From: an uncultured Candidatus Saccharibacteria bacterium
GTDB taxonomy: Bacteria; Patescibacteriota; Doudnabacteria; UBA920; 2-01-FULL-46-14
Direction of reading: 5' to 3'
Length of the DNA stretch: 58,217 bases
Assembly (NCBI GenBank): GCA_964360335.1
Contig: CAYHVH010000003.1
Location: 1 to 58,217, forward strand
In this document: positions 6,795 to 58,131 of the stretch, piece after piece
Layout: the number at the start of each line of letters is the position of its first letter
How positions within the stretch are numbered: the first letter of the stretch is position 1
Notes under the pieces: generated by a model
Databases searched by the model: none
Seen by the model: the letters and a program-made list of their open reading frames with translations, nothing else
What the model was told of the DNA's origin: nothing
Position numbers and translations under genes: made by a program

Positions 6795-6797
6795 ATT

Positions 6798-6829
6798 GTC
6801 ATTGCGAGGCTTGATAGGCCGAAGCAATC
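6798..6829. repeat. family B palindromic element (single unit gtcattgcgag...gaagcaatc)
   Basis: gtcattgcgaggcttgataggccgaagcaatc fills the gap before the second SDR gene. Confidence 0.8.
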
Positions 6830-21631: not shown

Positions 21632-21854
21632 GGTGGGTCGTGCAGGAATCGAACCTCTAATCCGCCTTAGGCGGACCCCTGCCCCGCCTGCCATTACCAC
21701 TGCCCCCAGTAGGTCTCGAACCTACAACCTTCTCCTTAAGAGGGAGCTGCTCTACCAATTGAGCTATGAGGGCAATGGCAGTGGCGGGCAGGTCTGCCAG
21801 CTCCGACGCTTCGGTCGGAGCCCCGACTGGGCGTCGGGGTTGAGCTAACGACCC
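21631..21854 (-). pseudogene. interrupted tRNA-Lys(UUU)-like gene: a 5' fragment and a 3' fragment with encoded CCA, separated by about 180 nt
   Basis: The minus strand starts GGGTCGTTAGCTCAA and ends GGTTCGATTCCTGCACGACCCACCA. These are complementary acceptor strands. No canonical D, anticodon or T stem can be drawn across the intervening hairpins and the nested tRNA. Confidence 0.5.
21701..21773 (-). tRNA. tRNA-Lys (anticodon CTT)
   Basis: Hand-folded cloverleaf: GCCCTCA/TGGGGGC acceptor, GCTC/GAGC D stem, loop CTCTTAA, GTAGG-TTCGAGA-CCTAC T arm. 73 nt, no encoded CCA. Confidence 0.85.
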
Positions 21855-21857
21855 GAA

Positions 21858-21929
21858 TGCCCTCGGAGGGAATCGAACCCCCACTCACAGGTCCGAAGCC
21901 TGTTGTGATATCCATTTCACCACGAGGGC
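21858..21929 (-). tRNA. tRNA-Arg (anticodon TCG)
   Basis: Hand-folded: GCCCTCG/CGAGGGC acceptor, GTGA/TCAC D stem, ACAGG-CTTCGGA-CCTGT anticodon arm, GGGGG-TTCGATT-CCCTC T arm. 72 nt. Confidence 0.85.
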
Positions 21930-23605: not shown

Positions 23606-23666
23606 GATTGCTTCGTGTTCGCTCGCAATGATGTCATTGCGACGAGGCGAAGCCGAGGAAGCAATC
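23604..23666. repeat. family B palindromic element (two inverted units) filling the archease-rtcB spacer
   Basis: gagattgcttcgtgttcgctcgcaatgat / gtcattgcgacgaggcgaagccgaggaagcaatc. Confidence 0.85.
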
Positions 23667-38289: not shown

Positions 38290-38361
38290 GGTGCCCGAAG
38301 GGAATCGAACCCTCGTGACCGCCTCCACAGGGCGGCGTTCTACCATTGAACTACGGGCACC
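38290..38361 (-). tRNA. tRNA-His (anticodon GTG) with encoded G-1
   Basis: G-GTGCCCG...CCGCC-CTGTGGA-GGCGG...GAGGG-TTCGATT-CCCTT-CGGGCAC-C. Confidence 0.85.
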
Positions 38362-38442
38362 ACGTCGCTTTATCAATTTTGAATTTTGTCGCCCCTCCGG
38401 GAGATCTGCCGTGGGCATGGCATTTTAAGTTGTGAATTTTTA

Positions 38443-38517
38443 TGGTACCCCCACGAGGAATCGAACCTCGATCCGCGGCTTAGAAGGCCACTGTTCTATC
38501 CGTTGAACTATGGGGGC
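38443..38517 (-). tRNA. tRNA-Arg (anticodon TCT) with encoded CCA
   Basis: GCCCCCA-TA-GTTC-AACGGATA-GAAC-A-GTGGC-CTTCTAA-GCCGC-GGAT-CGAGG-TTCGATT-CCTCG-TGGGGGT-A-CCA. Confidence 0.85.
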
Positions 38518-49789: not shown

Positions 49790-50746
49790 TTATTTATATC
49801 TAAATCTCCCGTGGTATTTTTTGTGAATCTCTTTCAAGCGGCGGTTAGTGATGTGGGTGTAAATCTGGGTCGTGGTGATGGAAGCGTGGCCCAAGATTTC
49901 CTGCACCGAACGAAGATCGGCCCCGGCGGTCAAAAGGTCGGTCGCCATGGTGTGCCGGAGGGTGTGGGGGGTGATGTGGGGAGAAACGCCGGCCCGGAGC
50001 GCGTATTTTTTCATGAGCCGCTGGATGGAGCGGGGGGTGAGGGGGTTCTGGTCCTCGATGCCGAGTTCCCGGTTGTGCCGGACGAACAGGGCGGGGGAGT
50101 TGTCGGGGCGAGCTCCCAGATATTTGCGCAAAGCGTCCCGGGCCCGCTCCGAGAGAAACACGATCCGCAATTTATCACCCTTGCCTTTGACGGGAAATTC
50201 CTCTTTTTTGAGACTGACTTGCGCGCGCTTGAGCGAAGCCAGTTCCGCGACCCGCAGCCCGGTGGAAAATAAAAGTTCGAGGATGGCGCGGTCGCGCAAG
50301 CGCAAAAGTTCATCCGGTTCCTGAAGCGGGGCTTTTAGGAGTTTTTCCAAATCATCGCTTTCCAGAAACATCACTTGGCGGGCCGGGATTTTCGGCAGTT
50401 CCAGCTTTTCCGCCGCCAAGCTTTTGATGTCCCGCTTGGCCAAGTATTTGAGAAAGGAGCGCAGGGCGATGATGTGGTAGTTTTGGGTTACGAGCTTAAG
50501 CTCGTGGTTTCTTCTATCTTTAAGACGGTTGAGCCATAGCCGAAAGTTACGCACCAGGTCCAAATCAATGCCCTCGGGCCTTTTTACGCCTTTTTTGGCG
50601 CCAAATTCCAAAAACCGCTTGAGATACGAATCATAGTTGCGCAAGGTGAGTTTGGAGCGGTTCTTCTCGATCTCGAGATGCTCGAGAAATTCAGTTTTGA
50701 GTTTGTCGAGAGTATTTACCATGTTTGTTTCCATCATTTCCGTCAT
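49790..50746 (-). CDS. tyrosine recombinase, XerC/XerD family
   Basis: N-terminal SAM-like domain, ARP..., HTLRHTMATDLL and LGHASITTTQIYTH. The ATG at 50746 lies inside a family B repeat. Confidence 0.8.
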   Translation of the reverse strand: MTEMMETNMVNTLDKLKTEFLEHLEIEKNRSKLTLRNYDSYLKRFLEFGAKKGVKRPEGIDLDLVRNFRLWLNRLKDRRNHELKLVTQNYHIIALRSFLKYLAKRDIKSLAAEKLELPKIPARQVMFLESDDLEKLLKAPLQEPDELLRLRDRAILELLFSTGLRVAELASLKRAQVSLKKEEFPVKGKGDKLRIVFLSERARDALRKYLGARPDNSPALFVRHNRELGIEDQNPLTPRSIQRLMKKYALRAGVSPHITPHTLRHTMATDLLTAGADLRSVQEILGHASITTTQIYTHITNRRLKEIHKKYHGRFRYK

Positions 50747-50776
50747 TGCGATCCCGACGTGTCGGGAGAAGCAATC
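50742..50776. repeat. family B palindromic element
   Basis: gtcattgcgatcccgacgtgtcgggagaagcaatc is the exact reverse complement of 58053-58087. Confidence 0.9.
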
Positions 50777-50825
50777 TACTCCCTCTTGCTCCCGTCATTC
50801 GATGGGACAGGTCTCCCCGAAATAC

Positions 50826-50870
50826 CCCTCCCCAGGCGTGGGGAGGGTGCCCGAAGGGCAGGAGAGGTCG
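50826..50870. repeat. family A palindromic element
   Basis: ccctccccaggcgtggggagggtgcccgaagggcaggagaggtcg. A further fragment, gagaggtcgcctggggaggg, lies at 50970-50989. Confidence 0.85.
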
Positions 50871-51033
50871 AACCGCAATGGCTCTTAAAACCTCTCTCCA
50901 GCTCTCCCCCCATTCGGCCTCCCGTTCAGGGTCTGAGACCCTTCAGGGTCGAACGACGAGCTCATGGCCGAGAGGTCGCCTGGGGAGGGTGGTAAGTAAG
51001 GAAGAAGACAATCCGGGAGACAAAGAGGGGGTA

Positions 51034-51075
51034 GATTGCTTCGTTCTCCGCCCAAGGCGGACGCCTCGCAAAGAC
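51034..51075. repeat. family B element, degenerate copy
   Basis: gattgcttcgttctccgcccaaggcggacgcctcgcaaagac. Confidence 0.6.
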
Positions 51076-52752: not shown

Positions 52753-54969
52753 ATGACGAAAAGTGAATATTCCGTGACCGCCGAAGTCGGAGGGAAGTCT
52801 TGGCATTTCTCAACCGGCAAACTTGCTCCCCAGGCCTCGGGGTCGGTTCTGGTCCGAGTCGGGGATACCGTGGTAATGGCCACGGCGGTTCTGGCCAAAG
52901 AACAGCGCGCGGGCATTGACTACCTGCCGCTTTTGGTGGACTACGAAGAGAAACTCTACGCCGCCGGGAAAATCAAAGGCAGCCGCTGGGTGAAGCGCGA
53001 AGGGCGGCCGTCGGACGAAGCGGTTCTTTCGGGTCGCGTCATTGACCGGAGCCTCCGGCCGATGTTTGACGGCCGGATTAGAAATGACATTCAGGTCGTG
53101 GTTACGGTCCTGTCGGTAGATGGAGAAAACGACCCGGATATTATCGGGCTAAATGCGGCTGCGGCGGCGGTTGCCATTTCGGAAATCCCCTGGGACGGCC
53201 CGATTGCTGGCGTGCGGGTAGGGAAAATCAAGGATGAGTTCGTGCTTAACCCTTCTTTCACGAAGACCGCAAACGAGAGCGTTCTCGATTTGATTGTTTC
53301 CGGTACGGCCGAGCATATCATCATGGTGGAAGCGGGGGCGAGGGAGGTTTCCGAGGAGGAAATTCTCTCGGCCGTGGCTTTTGCCCAGAAAGAACTCAAA
53401 AAAATTACTGTAGCCATTGATGAGCTCGCCGCCCAAGCCGGCAAGGCAAAAATTGCCCTTCTTCTGTTTACTCCCAGCGAGGCGGTCAGAAACCAAGTGC
53501 AAACATATGAACCGCGGCTTCGGGAAGCGCTGTTTCGGCCCGCAAAACCAGAACGAGAGGAAGCCCTCTACCGGCTGCATCAGGAGGTCCAGAAGGCCGT
53601 CGCCGGTGAGGATGAGCATTTGCGGCTGGAGGTGAATGCCGTTTGGGAGGAGCTCATGAAAAAAATCATTCAGAGCAGTATCCTGCAAGAGGAAAAGCGG
53701 CTGGATGGGAGGCAGCCGGCGGAAATCCGCCCGATTAGCTGCGAGGTGGGACTCTTGCCCCGGGTGCACGGCAGCGGCCTGTTCCAGCGGGGCGAAACCC
53801 AGGTTTTGACGACGGTGACCCTTGGTGGTCCGGGCGACGAACAGCTCCTGGAGGACTTGGATACGGAAGAGGAGCGGAAGAAGCGATATATGCACCATTA
53901 CAATATGCCGGGATTTTCGAGCGGCGAGGTCGCTCCCATGCGCTCGCCTGGCCGCCGCGAGATCGGCCATGGGGCTTTGGCCGAGCGAGCGCTTTTGCCG
54001 ATGATCCCGCCCAAAGAAAGTTTTCCCTATACGTTGCGCTTGGTTTCCGAGGTGCTCTCCAGCAACGGCTCGACCTCCATGGCCTCGACTTGCGGCTCGA
54101 CCTTGGCCCTGATGGATGCGGGCGTGCCGATCAAAGCCCCGGTGGCGGGGATTGCGATGGGTCTGGTACTCGACAAGCAGAGCAAGACTTATAAAATTTT
54201 GAGCGATATCCAAGGCATTGAGGACGGCACCGGGCATATGGATTTCAAAGTCGCGGGCAGTAAAGCCGGTGTCACCGCGCTCCAGCTCGATATCAAAGTC
54301 AAAGGCTTGACTTTGGAAATTTTGACCGACGCCCTAGCTGCCGCTCACACCGGCCGGATGTTGATTTTGGAAAAAATCCTCGAGGCCATAAACGCCCCAC
54401 GTCCGAGCATGTCGCAGTATGCGCCGCGCATCGTGTCGTTCAAGATCAATACCGAGAAAATCCGCGAGGTTATCGGCCCCGGCGGCAAAACCATCAATGC
54501 GATTATTGCCGAGACCGGGGTGAAGATTGACATTGAAGATGACGGTACGGTGATGGTCACGTCCACCAATCAGGAGGCGTCGAAGAAGGCCGTGGACTGG
54601 ATTGAAAATCTTACCCGCGAGGTAAAAGCCGGCGAAGAATTTCAGGGACGGATCACTCGGATTATGGACTTCGGCGCGTTTGCCGAGATTTTGCCCGGCC
54701 AAGAGGGTTTGATCCACATTTCGGAGTTGGCTCCTTTTCGCGTCGACCAAGTTACGGACATTGTCCAAATCGGGGACATCGTGCCGGTGAAAGTCGTGAA
54801 TATCGACGAATTGGGGCGGATTAATCTCTCGCGCAAGGCGCTTCTGCCGGGGGCGGAGAACACTCCCTCATCGCCAGCGCCGCACCACGGCTACGGCGAC
54901 CGGGGGCCAGGGCGCGGGAGGGGAGGTCATGGCCGACCGCCACGGCGGTTCGGCGGCCCGCGCAGCTAA
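52753..54969 (+). CDS. pnp: polyribonucleotide nucleotidyltransferase (PNPase)
   Basis: Two RNase PH domains (RxDGR, GSSMASxCGxSLAL-like STSMASTCGSTLALMDAG), KH and S1 domains, and an RG-rich tail. Follows rpsO. Confidence 0.94.
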   Translation: MTKSEYSVTAEVGGKSWHFSTGKLAPQASGSVLVRVGDTVVMATAVLAKEQRAGIDYLPLLVDYEEKLYAAGKIKGSRWVKREGRPSDEAVLSGRVIDRSLRPMFDGRIRNDIQVVVTVLSVDGENDPDIIGLNAAAAAVAISEIPWDGPIAGVRVGKIKDEFVLNPSFTKTANESVLDLIVSGTAEHIIMVEAGAREVSEEEILSAVAFAQKELKKITVAIDELAAQAGKAKIALLLFTPSEAVRNQVQTYEPRLREALFRPAKPEREEALYRLHQEVQKAVAGEDEHLRLEVNAVWEELMKKIIQSSILQEEKRLDGRQPAEIRPISCEVGLLPRVHGSGLFQRGETQVLTTVTLGGPGDEQLLEDLDTEEERKKRYMHHYNMPGFSSGEVAPMRSPGRREIGHGALAERALLPMIPPKESFPYTLRLVSEVLSSNGSTSMASTCGSTLALMDAGVPIKAPVAGIAMGLVLDKQSKTYKILSDIQGIEDGTGHMDFKVAGSKAGVTALQLDIKVKGLTLEILTDALAAAHTGRMLILEKILEAINAPRPSMSQYAPRIVSFKINTEKIREVIGPGGKTINAIIAETGVKIDIEDDGTVMVTSTNQEASKKAVDWIENLTREVKAGEEFQGRITRIMDFGAFAEILPGQEGLIHISELAPFRVDQVTDIVQIGDIVPVKVVNIDELGRINLSRKALLPGAENTPSSPAPHHGYGDRGPGRGRGGHGRPPRRFGGPRS

Positions 54970-54972
54970 CTT

Positions 54973-55023
54973 GTCATTGCCTGCCTGCGGTAGGCAGGCG
55001 AGGAGCGAAGTGACGAAGCAATC
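54973..55023. repeat. family B palindromic element
   Basis: gtcattgcctgcctgcggtaggcaggcgaggagcgaagtgacgaagcaatc. Confidence 0.8.
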
Positions 55024-55106
55024 CACCCCCACTTCATCTCCCCCTATCCCGTTTGACGGGACAGGGGGAGAAAAGAGAGGGGGTCGCTCGCAAAGACCCG
55101 TAAACA

Positions 55107-55151: not shown

Positions 55152-55390
55152 TGACTCCTTGCTCACTTGCGTTTGATTAAGGGTCTGTTGCTCATCCCCG
55201 TTGCCAAGCCAAAGCTTGGCCTTTCGTTTTCCTATTTATTTTTCAAAGAGCAGTTGGTTTTCTCTTCCCTCCCAATTTGTCTCTCCCGCCCCTCACTTGG
55301 TTTGAGGAGGAGCGTACAGCCGTATTGCTTAAGCACTTTCATCGTAGGCCTCTTTGGGAATTTGTCAAGAGGATAAGGCGATACTAATAT

Positions 55391-55425
55391 ACGAATGCAT
55401 CCGAATGATACGAATAGATGCGAAT
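55391..55425 (+). promoter_or_regulatory. four CGAAT motifs phased about 10 bp apart, 18-52 nt upstream of the tgt start
   Basis: acgaatgcat-ccgaatgat-acgaatagat-gcgaat. Confidence 0.35.
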
Positions 55426-55442
55426 AACCCATACTTTAACCA

Positions 55443-56732
55443 ATGGAATTTTTTAAGATCGTCAAAAAAGACAACAAAAGTCAAGCCCGAACGGGATTGA
55501 TTTCTACTCCGCATGGTGTTGTCCACACCCCGGCTTATCTTCCGATTGGCAGCAAGGGGAGTATCAAGGCCGTAACTGCCGAGGAGCTGAAGTTTTGGGG
55601 GGCGGAGATGATTTTGGCCAATACTTATCATCTTTGGCTGCGGCCCGGTGATACCCTAATTCACAAAGCCGGGGGGTTGCACAAATTCATGGGCTGGGAC
55701 GGTCCGATTTTTACTGATTCGGGAGGATTTCAGGTTTTTAGTTTGGGGGAAAAGCGGCGCGTCATTGCGAGCCTGCCTCGTCGGCAGACAGGCGAAGCCC
55801 CGTCTGCCGGACGGGCAGGGAAGCAATCCCAAGATCGGGGGATTGCCGCGCGCCTTTCAGGCGCTCGCAATGACAGAGATATAGACATGCCGACCCCGCT
55901 TTTGAAAAAAATCACGCAGAAGGGCGTGGAGTTTCAAAACGAACTCGACGGCACGATGCATCTTCTCACCCCCGAATCCTCGCTGCAAATCCAGTCCAAC
56001 CTCGGCTCCGACATCGCCTTAGTGCTGGACGATGTGCCGGGACTGCCGGCAGCCGAAGAGCGGATCCGAAAGTCCTTGGAGTTGACCCTGCATTGGGCGG
56101 CCCGGGCCAAAGCCCATTTTGAAAAAATTGTTGAAAGCAGTATCAATCCGGGGCAACGATTGTTGGGAATCGTCCAGGGCGGGGACTACCAGGAGCTGCG
56201 AAAAAAATCCATCGGGGCGCTCAAGGAGATTGGGTTTGACGGTTATGGCATTGGGGGACTGGCTGTGGGCGAGGATGAAGAAACTATGTATCGGGTCGTC
56301 AAATTCACTTCACCTTTGCTTGAGGAAGACAAGCCCCGGCACCTTTTGGGGGTGGGCTACCCCGAGCAGATTATAAAGGCGGTAAGCTTCGGGATGGATA
56401 CTTTTGATTGCGTGATTCCCACCCGCAACGCCCGCCACGGCCAGCTGTTCGTCAATAAAAAAGGCGGGGGCTACGAGGTTATTAGTATTAAGAACAGAGA
56501 GTTTGCCGAGGACTTCACCCCGGTGGACAATACCTGTTCCTGCTACGGCTGCACGCATCACAACCGCGCCTACCTGCGCCACTTATTTGCCGTCAAAGAG
56601 CCGCTGTCGGTCAGACTGGCGACCATGCACAACTTGCGCTTCTATCTCGACCTGATGGAAAAAGTCCGCCGGGCGATTGAGTTTGATAGTTTTGAAGAAA
56701 TGATGGATAATTATAAAGTCAAAAGACTATGA
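55443..56732 (+). CDS. tgt: tRNA-guanine transglycosylase (queuine tRNA-ribosyltransferase)
   Basis: TPHGVVHTPAYLPIG, ILANTYHL, TDSGGFQVFSL, LGSDIALVLDD, GIVQGG and the zinc site CSCYGC...H. Carries a 38-codon repeat-derived insert. Confidence 0.9.
   Translation: MEFFKIVKKDNKSQARTGLISTPHGVVHTPAYLPIGSKGSIKAVTAEELKFWGAEMILANTYHLWLRPGDTLIHKAGGLHKFMGWDGPIFTDSGGFQVFSLGEKRRVIASLPRRQTGEAPSAGRAGKQSQDRGIAARLSGARNDRDIDMPTPLLKKITQKGVEFQNELDGTMHLLTPESSLQIQSNLGSDIALVLDDVPGLPAAEERIRKSLELTLHWAARAKAHFEKIVESSINPGQRLLGIVQGGDYQELRKKSIGALKEIGFDGYGIGGLAVGEDEETMYRVVKFTSPLLEEDKPRHLLGVGYPEQIIKAVSFGMDTFDCVIPTRNARHGQLFVNKKGGGYEVISIKNREFAEDFTPVDNTCSCYGCTHHNRAYLRHLFAVKEPLSVRLATMHNLRFYLDLMEKVRRAIEFDSFEEMMDNYKVKRL
55761..55874. 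repeat. family B composite palindromic element (two inverted units), 114 nt, codon-aligned inside tgt
   Basis: gtcattgcgag...gaagcaatc / gattgc...ctcgcaatgac. 55761-55443=318 (a multiple of 3) and the length is 114. Confidence 0.9.
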
Positions 56733-58051: not shown

Positions 58052-58131
58052 AGATTGCTTCTCCCGACACGTCGGGATCGCAATGACAATAAAATAAGCG
58101 TCATTGCGAGGAGCAACGCGACGAAGCAATC
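58051..58131. repeat. family B palindromic elements (two units)
   Basis: gagattgcttctcccgacacgtcgggatcgcaatgac and gtcattgcgaggagcaacgcgacgaagcaatc. Confidence 0.85.

Follow-up and report, generated by a model that had tools for sequence, protein, structure and literature searches.

A repetitive extragenic palindrome dimer lying in frame within tgt of an uncultured Doudnabacteria bacterium: a probable case of tolerated selfish hairpin DNA

Introduction

The closest described counterparts of the element reported here are the CGTC-tagged repetitive extragenic palindromes (REPs; PMC3733652) and the Rickettsia palindromic elements (RPEs), the classic case of repeats lying in frame within many Rickettsia genes (PMC10969869). 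In this study, we characterize a 114-nt palindrome that lies in frame within tgt, the gene for tRNA guanosine(34) transglycosylase (Tgt), of an uncultured bacterium whose Tgt finds its best protein matches in Candidatus Doudnabacteria. The gene is located on contig CAYHVH010000003.1 (GCA_964360335.1), of which positions 1-58,217 were analysed; this whole stretch is referred to below as the window.

According to the survey of CGTC-tagged REPs, these repeats carry an unpaired CGTC tag, or a TGTC or CCTC variant of it, followed by a stem that opens with an A-T and a T-A pair and by a CCA-like tail (PMC3733652). They are found mostly as inverted dimers with spacers of 20-100 nt, mostly between genes and near the 3' ends of open reading frames (ORFs), and the classes CGTC-1 to CGTC-4 have perfect stems of 8-9 bp with loops of 4-5 nt. 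A minority of the CGTC- and GTAG-tagged REPs is intragenic, as in-frame dimers that encode 20-30 residues; the published intragenic CGTC peptides include VIPAKAGI, VIAGLDPAIH, VIPWLDHGI and SFLRKQES…DSRFRGND. Genes hosting intragenic REPs or RPEs comprise uvrA, dnaE2, recB, truB, and genes for tRNA synthetases and tRNA modification. In Rickettsia conorii, where RPE-4 and RPE-6 are themselves CGTC REPs, a queuosine-pathway gene (tRNA ribosyltransferase-isomerase) carries an intragenic repeat. The survey reports no dedicated transposase for CGTC REPs, none being flanked by CGTC units, and the five phyla that it covers include no Patescibacteria or other members of the Candidate Phyla Radiation (CPR) (PMC3733652).

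Results

A stop-free palindromic dimer within tgt

The insert (55761-55874, plus strand) lies in an intact tgt ORF of 429 aa (55443-56732, plus strand; TIGR00430/PF01702). It opens with GTCATTGCGAG at 55761, 318 nt into the ORF, closes with CTCGCAATGAC at 55874, and contributes 38 stop-free codons that encode VIASLPRRQTGEAPSAGRAGKQSQDRGIAARLSGARND and correspond to Tgt residues 107-144. The two arms, 55761-55772 and 55863-55874, form a perfect 12-nt terminal inverted repeat. The RNA of the insert is predicted to fold into a closed multi-branch hairpin of about -72 to -74 kcal/mol (z = -5.9), and none of 200 shuffled sequences was as stable. These results bear out an initial annotation of the window, which had described a 114-nt palindrome of two inverted units at this site, beginning in frame 318 nt into tgt and spanning 38 codons. 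Judging from the sequence comparisons and the structural model presented below, the insert is most probably a passively tolerated piece of selfish hairpin DNA that is translated as a disordered loop of Tgt.

Two REP-type units in inverted orientation make up the insert, a dimer whose tags and conserved GTCATT ends face outward. A CGTC tag (55760-55763, plus strand) marks the outer end of the left unit, and the mirror end reads GAC-A at 55872-55875, that is, a TGTC tag on the minus strand. Sequence and comparison of copies delimit the left unit (55761-55828, plus strand) as GTCATTGCGAG, a 48-nt centre and GAAGCAATC. This expanded centre (55772-55819, plus strand) was resolved by inverted-repeat search and RNA folding into nested hairpins, with CCTGCC..GGCAGG around GGCAGAC..GTCTGCC around GGC-GAA-GCC. 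The same analyses define a spacer of 12 nt (55829-55840), whose ends pair as GCAATCCC/GGGATTGC. The right unit (55841-55874, minus strand) has the inverse orientation and reads GTCATTGCGAG-CGCCTGAAAGGCG-CGCGGCAATC in reverse complement; its sub-type is common to the tgt inserts of three other loci (L001, L003 and L006) and resembles the unit at 713-747. Exact removal of 55761-55874 leaves GEKRR-RDIDMPTPLLKK, a loop with the length and character found in insert-free relatives.

A second hairpin type, CCTGC…GCAGG of about 19-21 nt, was observed nested in larger units at 54981-54999, at 55772-55819 and in the tgt inserts of L001 and L003. Its position is either the centre of the unit or a site close to the GC of the ATTGC/GCAAT stem. 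Hence, from their sequences, hairpins appear to insert into, or accumulate within, other hairpins.

The host enzyme is conserved around the insert

The window Tgt scores 452.1 bits against the TIGR00430 model (equivalog cut-off 306.75; NCBIfam) and covers profile positions 3-360 of 368. Its motifs comprise DSGG at residue 92, VLDDV at 194, TFDCV at 320 and CSCYGC at 365, and H396 is invariant in an alignment of 43 Doudnabacteria Tgt relatives (369-467 aa). Both the catalytic aspartates and the CxCxxC…H zinc site are present, they align with the Zymomonas mobilis and Escherichia coli structures, and every residue invariant across the 43 relatives is kept, among them DSGG, FDC and CxCxxC…H. Outside the loops, the protein is 72-81% identical to its relatives and the gene has no frameshifts. 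The gene order rpsO-pnp-tgt-glyS is also conserved. The initial annotation had raised the case of a tgt pseudogene accompanied by an intact copy; the gene is not visibly a pseudogene, and no second tgt was found within the 58,217-nt window. The predicted Tgt protein is probably made and active.

Comparison with PDB sequences (phmmer, two matched blocks) placed the insert in residues 104-153, which are unmatched in E. coli and Z. mobilis Tgt, where the flanks are contiguous. The break point in Z. mobilis Tgt is 113|114, and E. coli Tgt has GDIRK ahead of ITEQGVHF, in line with the roughly five residues noted for it in the initial annotation. The E. coli and Z. mobilis proteins have 375 and 386 aa, respectively; the 429 aa of the window protein had first been judged against a typical 375-390 aa. 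About 50 residues are extra relative to both proteins. The element supplies 38 of them, and about 10 (RDIDMPTPLL) stem from a loop that is also lengthened in most of the repeat-free Doudnabacteria Tgt proteins. Our literature search on Tgt residues 113/114 found no structural description of the loop environment.

An AlphaFold2 model of the window Tgt, built on the 43-sequence alignment, has a mean predicted local distance difference test score (pLDDT) of 80 and a confident TIM barrel. Residues 115-148 have a pLDDT below 50 and no secondary structure. In Foldseek, the model matched Z. mobilis Tgt chains with template modelling scores of 0.92-0.94 (normalised by target; E ~1e-42) and the whole target superposed. 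The model is therefore compatible with an enzyme of ordinary fold in which the insert would form a disordered loop, probably at the protein surface.

Two Tgt loops gather repeats of several families

Terminal extensions aside, the internal length of Tgt varies at two sites only among the 43 relatives: the loop after GEK, which is the insert site, and the loop after FVNxK. Same-family inserts occupy the first loop in P0002, P0006, P0025 and P0028, and an insert of the same type stands at the identical position in 5 of the 43 proteins, which belong to two clades. Insert-free proteins include P0004, P0007, P0017, P0023 and most of the others. The phylogenetic distribution of the insert is patchy. 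None of the compared Tgt proteins devoid of the repeat DNA shares the 38 residues. P0028 bears a further same-family insert in its second loop (VIARS…GARDD), and unrelated palindromic repeats, recognizable by PLTLRGG…GEGEL, SPSPGEG and CGAAT-type peptides, occur at these two loops in other relatives. Every loop repeat among the full-length Tgt proteins aligned is in frame.

The second hypervariable loop (alignment columns ~390-450) has a short form in the window Tgt (residues ~337-343), while in P0012, P0014 and P0026-P0028 it accommodates repeat-derived inserts that can reach ~60 residues. Repeats of the CGAAT type, with a period of ~9-10 nt, are also seen just upstream of the window tgt (55380-55425), and P0003 and P0027 have CGAAT-repeat peptides in frame in their Tgt loops (…HPNVPNSDNSD…, …NIRMHTNVTNSG…).

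At the DNA level, the tgt dimers of L001 (96 nt), L003 (90 nt) and L006 (67 nt) all have the family termini, and their right-hand unit ATTGCCGCGCGCC…GGCGCTCGCAATGAC resembles that of the window. L001 and L003 contain an extra 21-nt hairpin of the CCTGC…GCAGG type nested in CTCG^CAATGAC, with the frame kept. The insert peptide is poorly conserved (VVAIRQLTEKQTQGIATRSKGARPPAERAGND versus VIANEVKQSQGEIAARPMGARPPAERAGND) even where the host protein is 91% identical. As far as these sequences tell, conservation is at the level of the DNA palindrome, not of the peptide.

A filled and an empty allele, P0006 and P0007, could be compared closely, as they are 98% identical in protein and ~95% identical in DNA outside the loops. 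They differ sharply in the loop and ~20 nt on either side of it, and again in a patch around the second loop. This difference looks like replacement by recombination, not like precise insertion or excision. The inserts of the window, L001, L003 and L006 may go back to one old event followed by losses or transfers, or to several independent insertions. The similar right-hand unit and a spacer start, GCAATCCCAAG, common to three of these four loci point to a single event. On the other side stand the patchy distribution, the different left-junction phase in L006 and the recombination-like patches.

Genic copies keep the reading frame

A GTCATT…AATGAC dimer whose length is a multiple of three (3n) has two open phases, GTC|ATT (V-I-A…R-N-D) and xxG|TCA|TTG (S-L-R…L-A-M-T); the remaining phase is closed by a TGA in GCAATGAC. 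The V-I-A…R-N-D phase is the one used in the window tgt and in copies within uvrA (L116) and guaA (L092). Five of the six genic dimers are 3n (window, 114 nt; L003, 90 nt; L001, 96 nt; uvrA, 87 nt; guaA, 78 nt). In the sixth, L006, the frame is preserved by the combination of a 67-nt length and a 2-nt shift of the junction; it enters as S-L-R and exits as R-N-D. No stop interrupts any of the six in the frame that is read. None of the five intergenic compound copies in the window (86, 61, 79, 334 and 125 nt) is divisible by three, and most have stops in several frames. Among the matches listed from other genomes, 65 dimers are distributed 24/27/14 by length modulo three. This pattern is what a translation filter predicts, and not what RNA excision would predict.

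The dimer in uvrA (L116:1761-4490, minus strand) lies in frame (VIASKAKQSHSTGSANNGIATSPLAPRND) with Pfam domains on both sides, and that in guaA (L092:4073-5743, plus strand) lies in frame inside the GATase domain (VIARPRSGAAISKNSEIASEGAPRND). A PD-(D/E)XK nuclease (L076) and a TrwB/NUDIX protein (L038) likewise contain single family units in frame.

The family is otherwise intergenic in the window

The element 11-mer occurs 12 times in the window, allowing up to 1 mismatch, against 0.94 expected, a count reached in none of 100 shuffles. The six further copies are all intergenic, as had been noted at the outset. Two dimers have their tags inward, one of 61 nt with heads abutting (23606-23666) and one of 79 nt directly after the stop of glycyl-tRNA synthetase (58053-58131). 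In the 86-nt dimer at 713-798 the tags face outward, and a single unit (6798-6829, plus strand) begins 3 nt past the stop of the upstream ORF. A compound element of 125 nt (54973-55097) begins 3 nt past the pnp stop, and its left unit includes a nested CCTGC..GCAGG hairpin (54981-54999). The largest copy is a compound palindrome of 334 nt (50742-51075; RNA fold -176 kcal/mol), bordered by two family units; its interior contains other palindromic repeats, of the CCCCTCCCC…GGGGAGGG type. Several copies begin 1-3 nt behind a stop codon. The base preceding the units is C at 712, 50741, 55760 and 58099 and T at 6797 and 54972, and the unit tails read CCC, CTT, CTA, CCA and CCA. Only one of the seven loci is genic though coding sequence makes up ~88% of the window (random placement, P = 2e-5). 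This depletion from coding sequence is the signature of selection against genic copies.

Elsewhere in the window, the pnp ORF ends in a Gly/Arg/Pro-rich tail (…HHGYGDRGPGRGRGGHGRPPRRFGGPRS; 54850-54969) right before the repeat element; this tail may be a repeat-derived or low-complexity C-terminal extension. The minus strand carries two pairs of tRNA genes (21701-21929 and 38290-38517). These four tRNAs are the only Rfam matches at the gathering score in the whole window, and 55700-55940 gave nothing better than E = 2.5.

The repeat recurs across many phyla

Scanning one genome per species for GTCATTGCGAG-N5-35-GAAGCAATC returned at least 120 loci (L008-L127), with 216 units in them. The unit can be written CGTC-ATTGCGAG…GAAGCAAT-CCA, and its ends are near-invariant across many phyla. 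The following details hold among the matches listed. Within Proteobacteria, matches were found in Bradyrhizobium, Sphingomonas and other Alphaproteobacteria and in Gamma- and Deltaproteobacteria. Further matches come from Chloroflexota, Bacteroidota (Pedobacter, Chryseobacterium, Hymenobacter), cyanobacteria (Nostoc, Microcoleus), Planctomycetota, Zixibacteria, Omnitrophota, Armatimonadota, Sporomusa and Helicobacter rodentium, as well as from Patescibacteria, among them a Doudnabacteria metagenome-assembled genome (MAG). Of the 216 units, 140 have a C and 68 a T immediately ahead of GTC. After GCAATC, the first base is C in 138 and the second is A in 114, giving GCAAT-CCA. The outer stem ATTGC…GCAAT has 5 bp, beyond which come GAG/GAA and a central part of 4-49 nt. 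As for arrangement, the tags face outward in 65 dimers and inward in 6, alongside 6 tandem pairs and 71 single units, and the median dimer length is 86 nt. A Chloroflexus MAG shows three same-orientation units in tandem with a period of ~50 nt (L015:1372-1506), unlike the usual inverted dimers.

The commonest centres among these matches are CGAAGC, CGCAGC, CGTAGC and CGGAGC, which together with the flanking G read GCGNAGC. In DNA, this sequence forms a hyperstable mini-hairpin closed by a GNA loop (PMC13037366), and the element may act as single-stranded DNA. We take this as a hint, drawn from the sequence of the centre, that the repeat acts or spreads in the form of single-stranded hairpins.

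By its sequence, the repeat fits the CGTC-tagged REP superfamily. We placed it in no named family because its stem differs from those of CGTC-1 to CGTC-4, and our literature searches for the repeat sequence returned nothing relevant and no name for the stem family. A search on hairpin insertions in the CPR likewise returned nothing specific. No RAYT/TIRYT-like ORF was detected at E values up to 10 when 8 cores were compared by phmmer with all 450 six-frame ORFs of the window.

Other element classes were considered and set aside. A miniature inverted-repeat transposable element would share the terminal inverted repeats but should be flanked by a target-site duplication, which is lacking here (flanks GGCGC| / |AGAGA) and at the other copies. 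A REPIN/RAYT assignment fails on the tag, CGTC and not GTAG, and on the lack of a Y1 ORF in the window. At 38 residues the insert is too short for an intein, and only TGT models match the protein. Its size is wrong for a group I or group II intron, and it has no Rfam match.

Discussion

The results of our study indicate that tgt in this genome most probably hosts a passively tolerated selfish repeat. Three findings, namely the multi-copy and otherwise intergenic family, the absence of the insert from most close relatives and the kept catalytic and zinc-binding motifs, support the initial interpretation of selfish hairpin DNA persisting in the gene. Either translation as a loop or removal at the RNA level had been envisaged at that stage. 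Translation is favoured by the 3n, stop-free genic dimers, by the disordered model and by the precedent of CGTC/GTAG REPs and of RPEs (PMC3733652; PMC10969869). Removal found no support, as nothing observed requires it. In the proposed scenario, a dimer would have landed in a permissive, solvent-exposed loop just after DSGGFQVFSLGEK, or would have come there by recombination. In each of its two units, a CGTC tag adjoins the stem ATTGC…GCAAT, the centre is a GC-rich hairpin that varies between copies, and the tail reads CC(A). The copy would persist because its 3n length and stop-free phase add just 38 hydrophilic, disordered residues to an intact enzyme. The mRNA would be read straight through, with nothing removed.

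Several observations weigh against this explanation. The insertion point is only ~10 residues past the catalytic DSGGFQ segment, and the very stable hairpin in the mRNA could impede translation. The evidence for a frame filter is partly circular, since the genic copies were found as intact ORFs. The initial annotation had proposed a search for empty-site alleles, and among the tgt relatives compared no clean one was found, P0006 and P0007 differing by the recombination-like patch described above. As intact ORFs are biased toward in-frame inserts, we also searched for broken alleles using the N-terminal 106 residues of Tgt alone as query. Most short matches were contig-end fragments, and many Tgt fragments end at the loop, which implies that assemblies often break there. 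Two alleles carried stops. In L208 (560-700), an in-frame TAA (581-583) directly follows GEKKK; after it come a perfect palindrome of a different family, CTCTCCCCCTCCCGAAGGGAAGGGGGAGAG, and then tgt in the same frame to its normal C-terminus. In L209 (1480-1641), the gene is broken after GEKK by stop-containing, AT-rich CGAAT-repeat DNA, and the contig ends 100 nt later. These stops indicate that read-through translation is not universal among the relatives. On their sequences, L208 and L209 may be pseudogenes or sequencing errors, and L208 may alternatively be a recoding site.

Stops of this kind bear on two rival explanations. One holds that the insert is cut from the mRNA and the ends rejoined, or that the ribosome bypasses it in the manner of T4 gene 60 or the mitochondrial 'byp' elements. 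A very stable closed hairpin would indeed bring the two ends of the insert together, and the L208 arrangement, with TAA at the loop junction, a strong hairpin and same-frame coding downstream, resembles a take-off site. In the window, the insert is in frame and stop-free, so that nothing requires its removal, and no stop follows the putative take-off codon. The frame-keeping of the genic dimers, 5 of 6 being 3n and 6 of 6 open as the intergenic copies are not, is unexpected under excision, no Rfam family, intron or ribozyme matches, and bacterial chromosomal mRNAs are not known to undergo such a process. We consider this explanation very improbable. It is kept barely alive by L208, which comes from another genome and involves another repeat family. 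Judged by the same sequences, expression of stop-bearing Doudnabacteria tgt alleles such as L208 through ribosomal bypass or RNA-level excision of the hairpin is equally hard to credit. If true, bacterial chromosomes would have an equivalent of the mitochondrial 'byp' elements, and the stop-free copy in the window would represent one state of a system able to leave the insert unread. The other explanation to which broken alleles lend weight is an inactive or decaying tgt, with the insert as a symptom of relaxed selection. Queuosine modification, and with it Tgt, is dispensable in model bacteria, and the Tgt loops gather repeats of several families. An intact ORF of 429 aa that retains every residue invariant in 43 relatives, scores 452 bits against the equivalog model and shows 72-81% identity outside the loops without frameshifts argues the opposite, and decay in the window is quite unlikely.

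The recurrence of the insert can also be read as function, that is, as a lineage-specific extension of Tgt, for instance for binding a partner or the tRNA, that merely resembles a repeat. It would account for inserts of one type at one position in 5 of 43 proteins of two clades, and for a right-hand unit that is similar in all four alleles whose DNA was compared. However, the peptide is poorly conserved at 91% host identity, conservation lying in the palindrome and the family termini, identical units lie between genes in the same window, the closest relatives do without the insert, and it is predicted to be disordered. A functional extension is hence quite unlikely. Finally, repeats commonly cause mis-joins, and the many database fragments of Tgt that end at the loop could suggest that a repeat copy was misassembled into tgt. 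This is extremely unlikely, given that independent assemblies from other samples have same-family in-frame inserts at the same site (L001/L002, L003/L004, L006), that both flanks continue tgt in the same frame and that excising 55761-55874 leaves a loop of the relatives' length. Altogether, translation of a tolerated repeat as a disordered Tgt loop remains the explanation that we favour.

This interpretation extends the presence of in-frame REP/RPE hairpins in housekeeping enzymes, known from Rickettsia and some Proteobacteria, to the CPR and to tgt. The two Tgt loops would be naturally permissive insertion sites for several repeat families, which may be useful for loop engineering, and repeat inserts would explain part of the variation in CPR protein length. 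The recurrence of the repeat, almost unchanged, across many phyla and without a known transposase makes its mode of spread a small but real question. On the practical side, such inserts can break assemblies, inflate protein lengths and create spurious ORFs in metagenomes.

Regarding known systems, the repeat in tgt matches the event described in Rickettsia; new are the CPR host, the tgt gene and a stem family not found named. Also new, at the level of sequence, are the use of two Tgt loops as recurrent sites by several repeat families and the presence/absence polymorphism between near-identical alleles. The insert resembles bypassed elements, i.e. mitochondrial GC-cluster/'byp' elements and T4 gene 60, in being a GC-rich hairpin, mobile in the case of those elements, inside a protein-coding gene. 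Those elements break the frame and are skipped by the ribosome, whereas the window insert, which keeps the frame and has no stop, can do without bypass; neither a stop after a take-off codon nor an out-of-frame or stop-containing gap was found in it. With the REP, BIME and REPIN elements mobilised by RAYT tyrosine (Y1 HUH) transposases, it shares the inverted doublet of short hairpins and a likely single-stranded hairpin substrate, and it differs from REPIN/RAYT in its CGTC tag, instead of GTAG, and in the absence of a RAYT/TIRYT-like ORF from the window. As in the RPEs (Ogata et al. 2000; PMC10969869), palindromes lie in frame in unrelated housekeeping genes and are thought to be translated as surface segments; the host phylum differs, and the sequence family probably does too. 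Classical RPE-1 is ~150 bp long with a conserved peptide, unlike the tgt insert, in which the peptide is not conserved and secondary hairpins are nested. Of the RPEs, RPE-4 and RPE-6 (CGTC-4 and CGTC-1, respectively) were the two compared, and their peptides do not match that of the insert. The nearest likeness is to the CGTC-tagged REPs (Di Nocera, De Gregorio & Rocco 2013, BMC Genomics 14:522): the tag, the A-T/T-A start of the stem and the CCA-like tail agree, and so do the many copies, the inverted dimers, the mostly intergenic location with an in-frame minority and the lack of a detected dedicated transposase. The ATTGC-GAG…GAA-GCAAT stem and the variable centre set the repeat apart from CGTC-1 to CGTC-4, a distinction based on the stem descriptions and the supplement peptides of that survey. 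Identity with the atypical 'Bradyrhizobium CGTC-1' variants mentioned there is possible; none of the intragenic CGTC peptides listed in the survey (PMC3733652) matches the VIAS…KQS…ARND type of the window.

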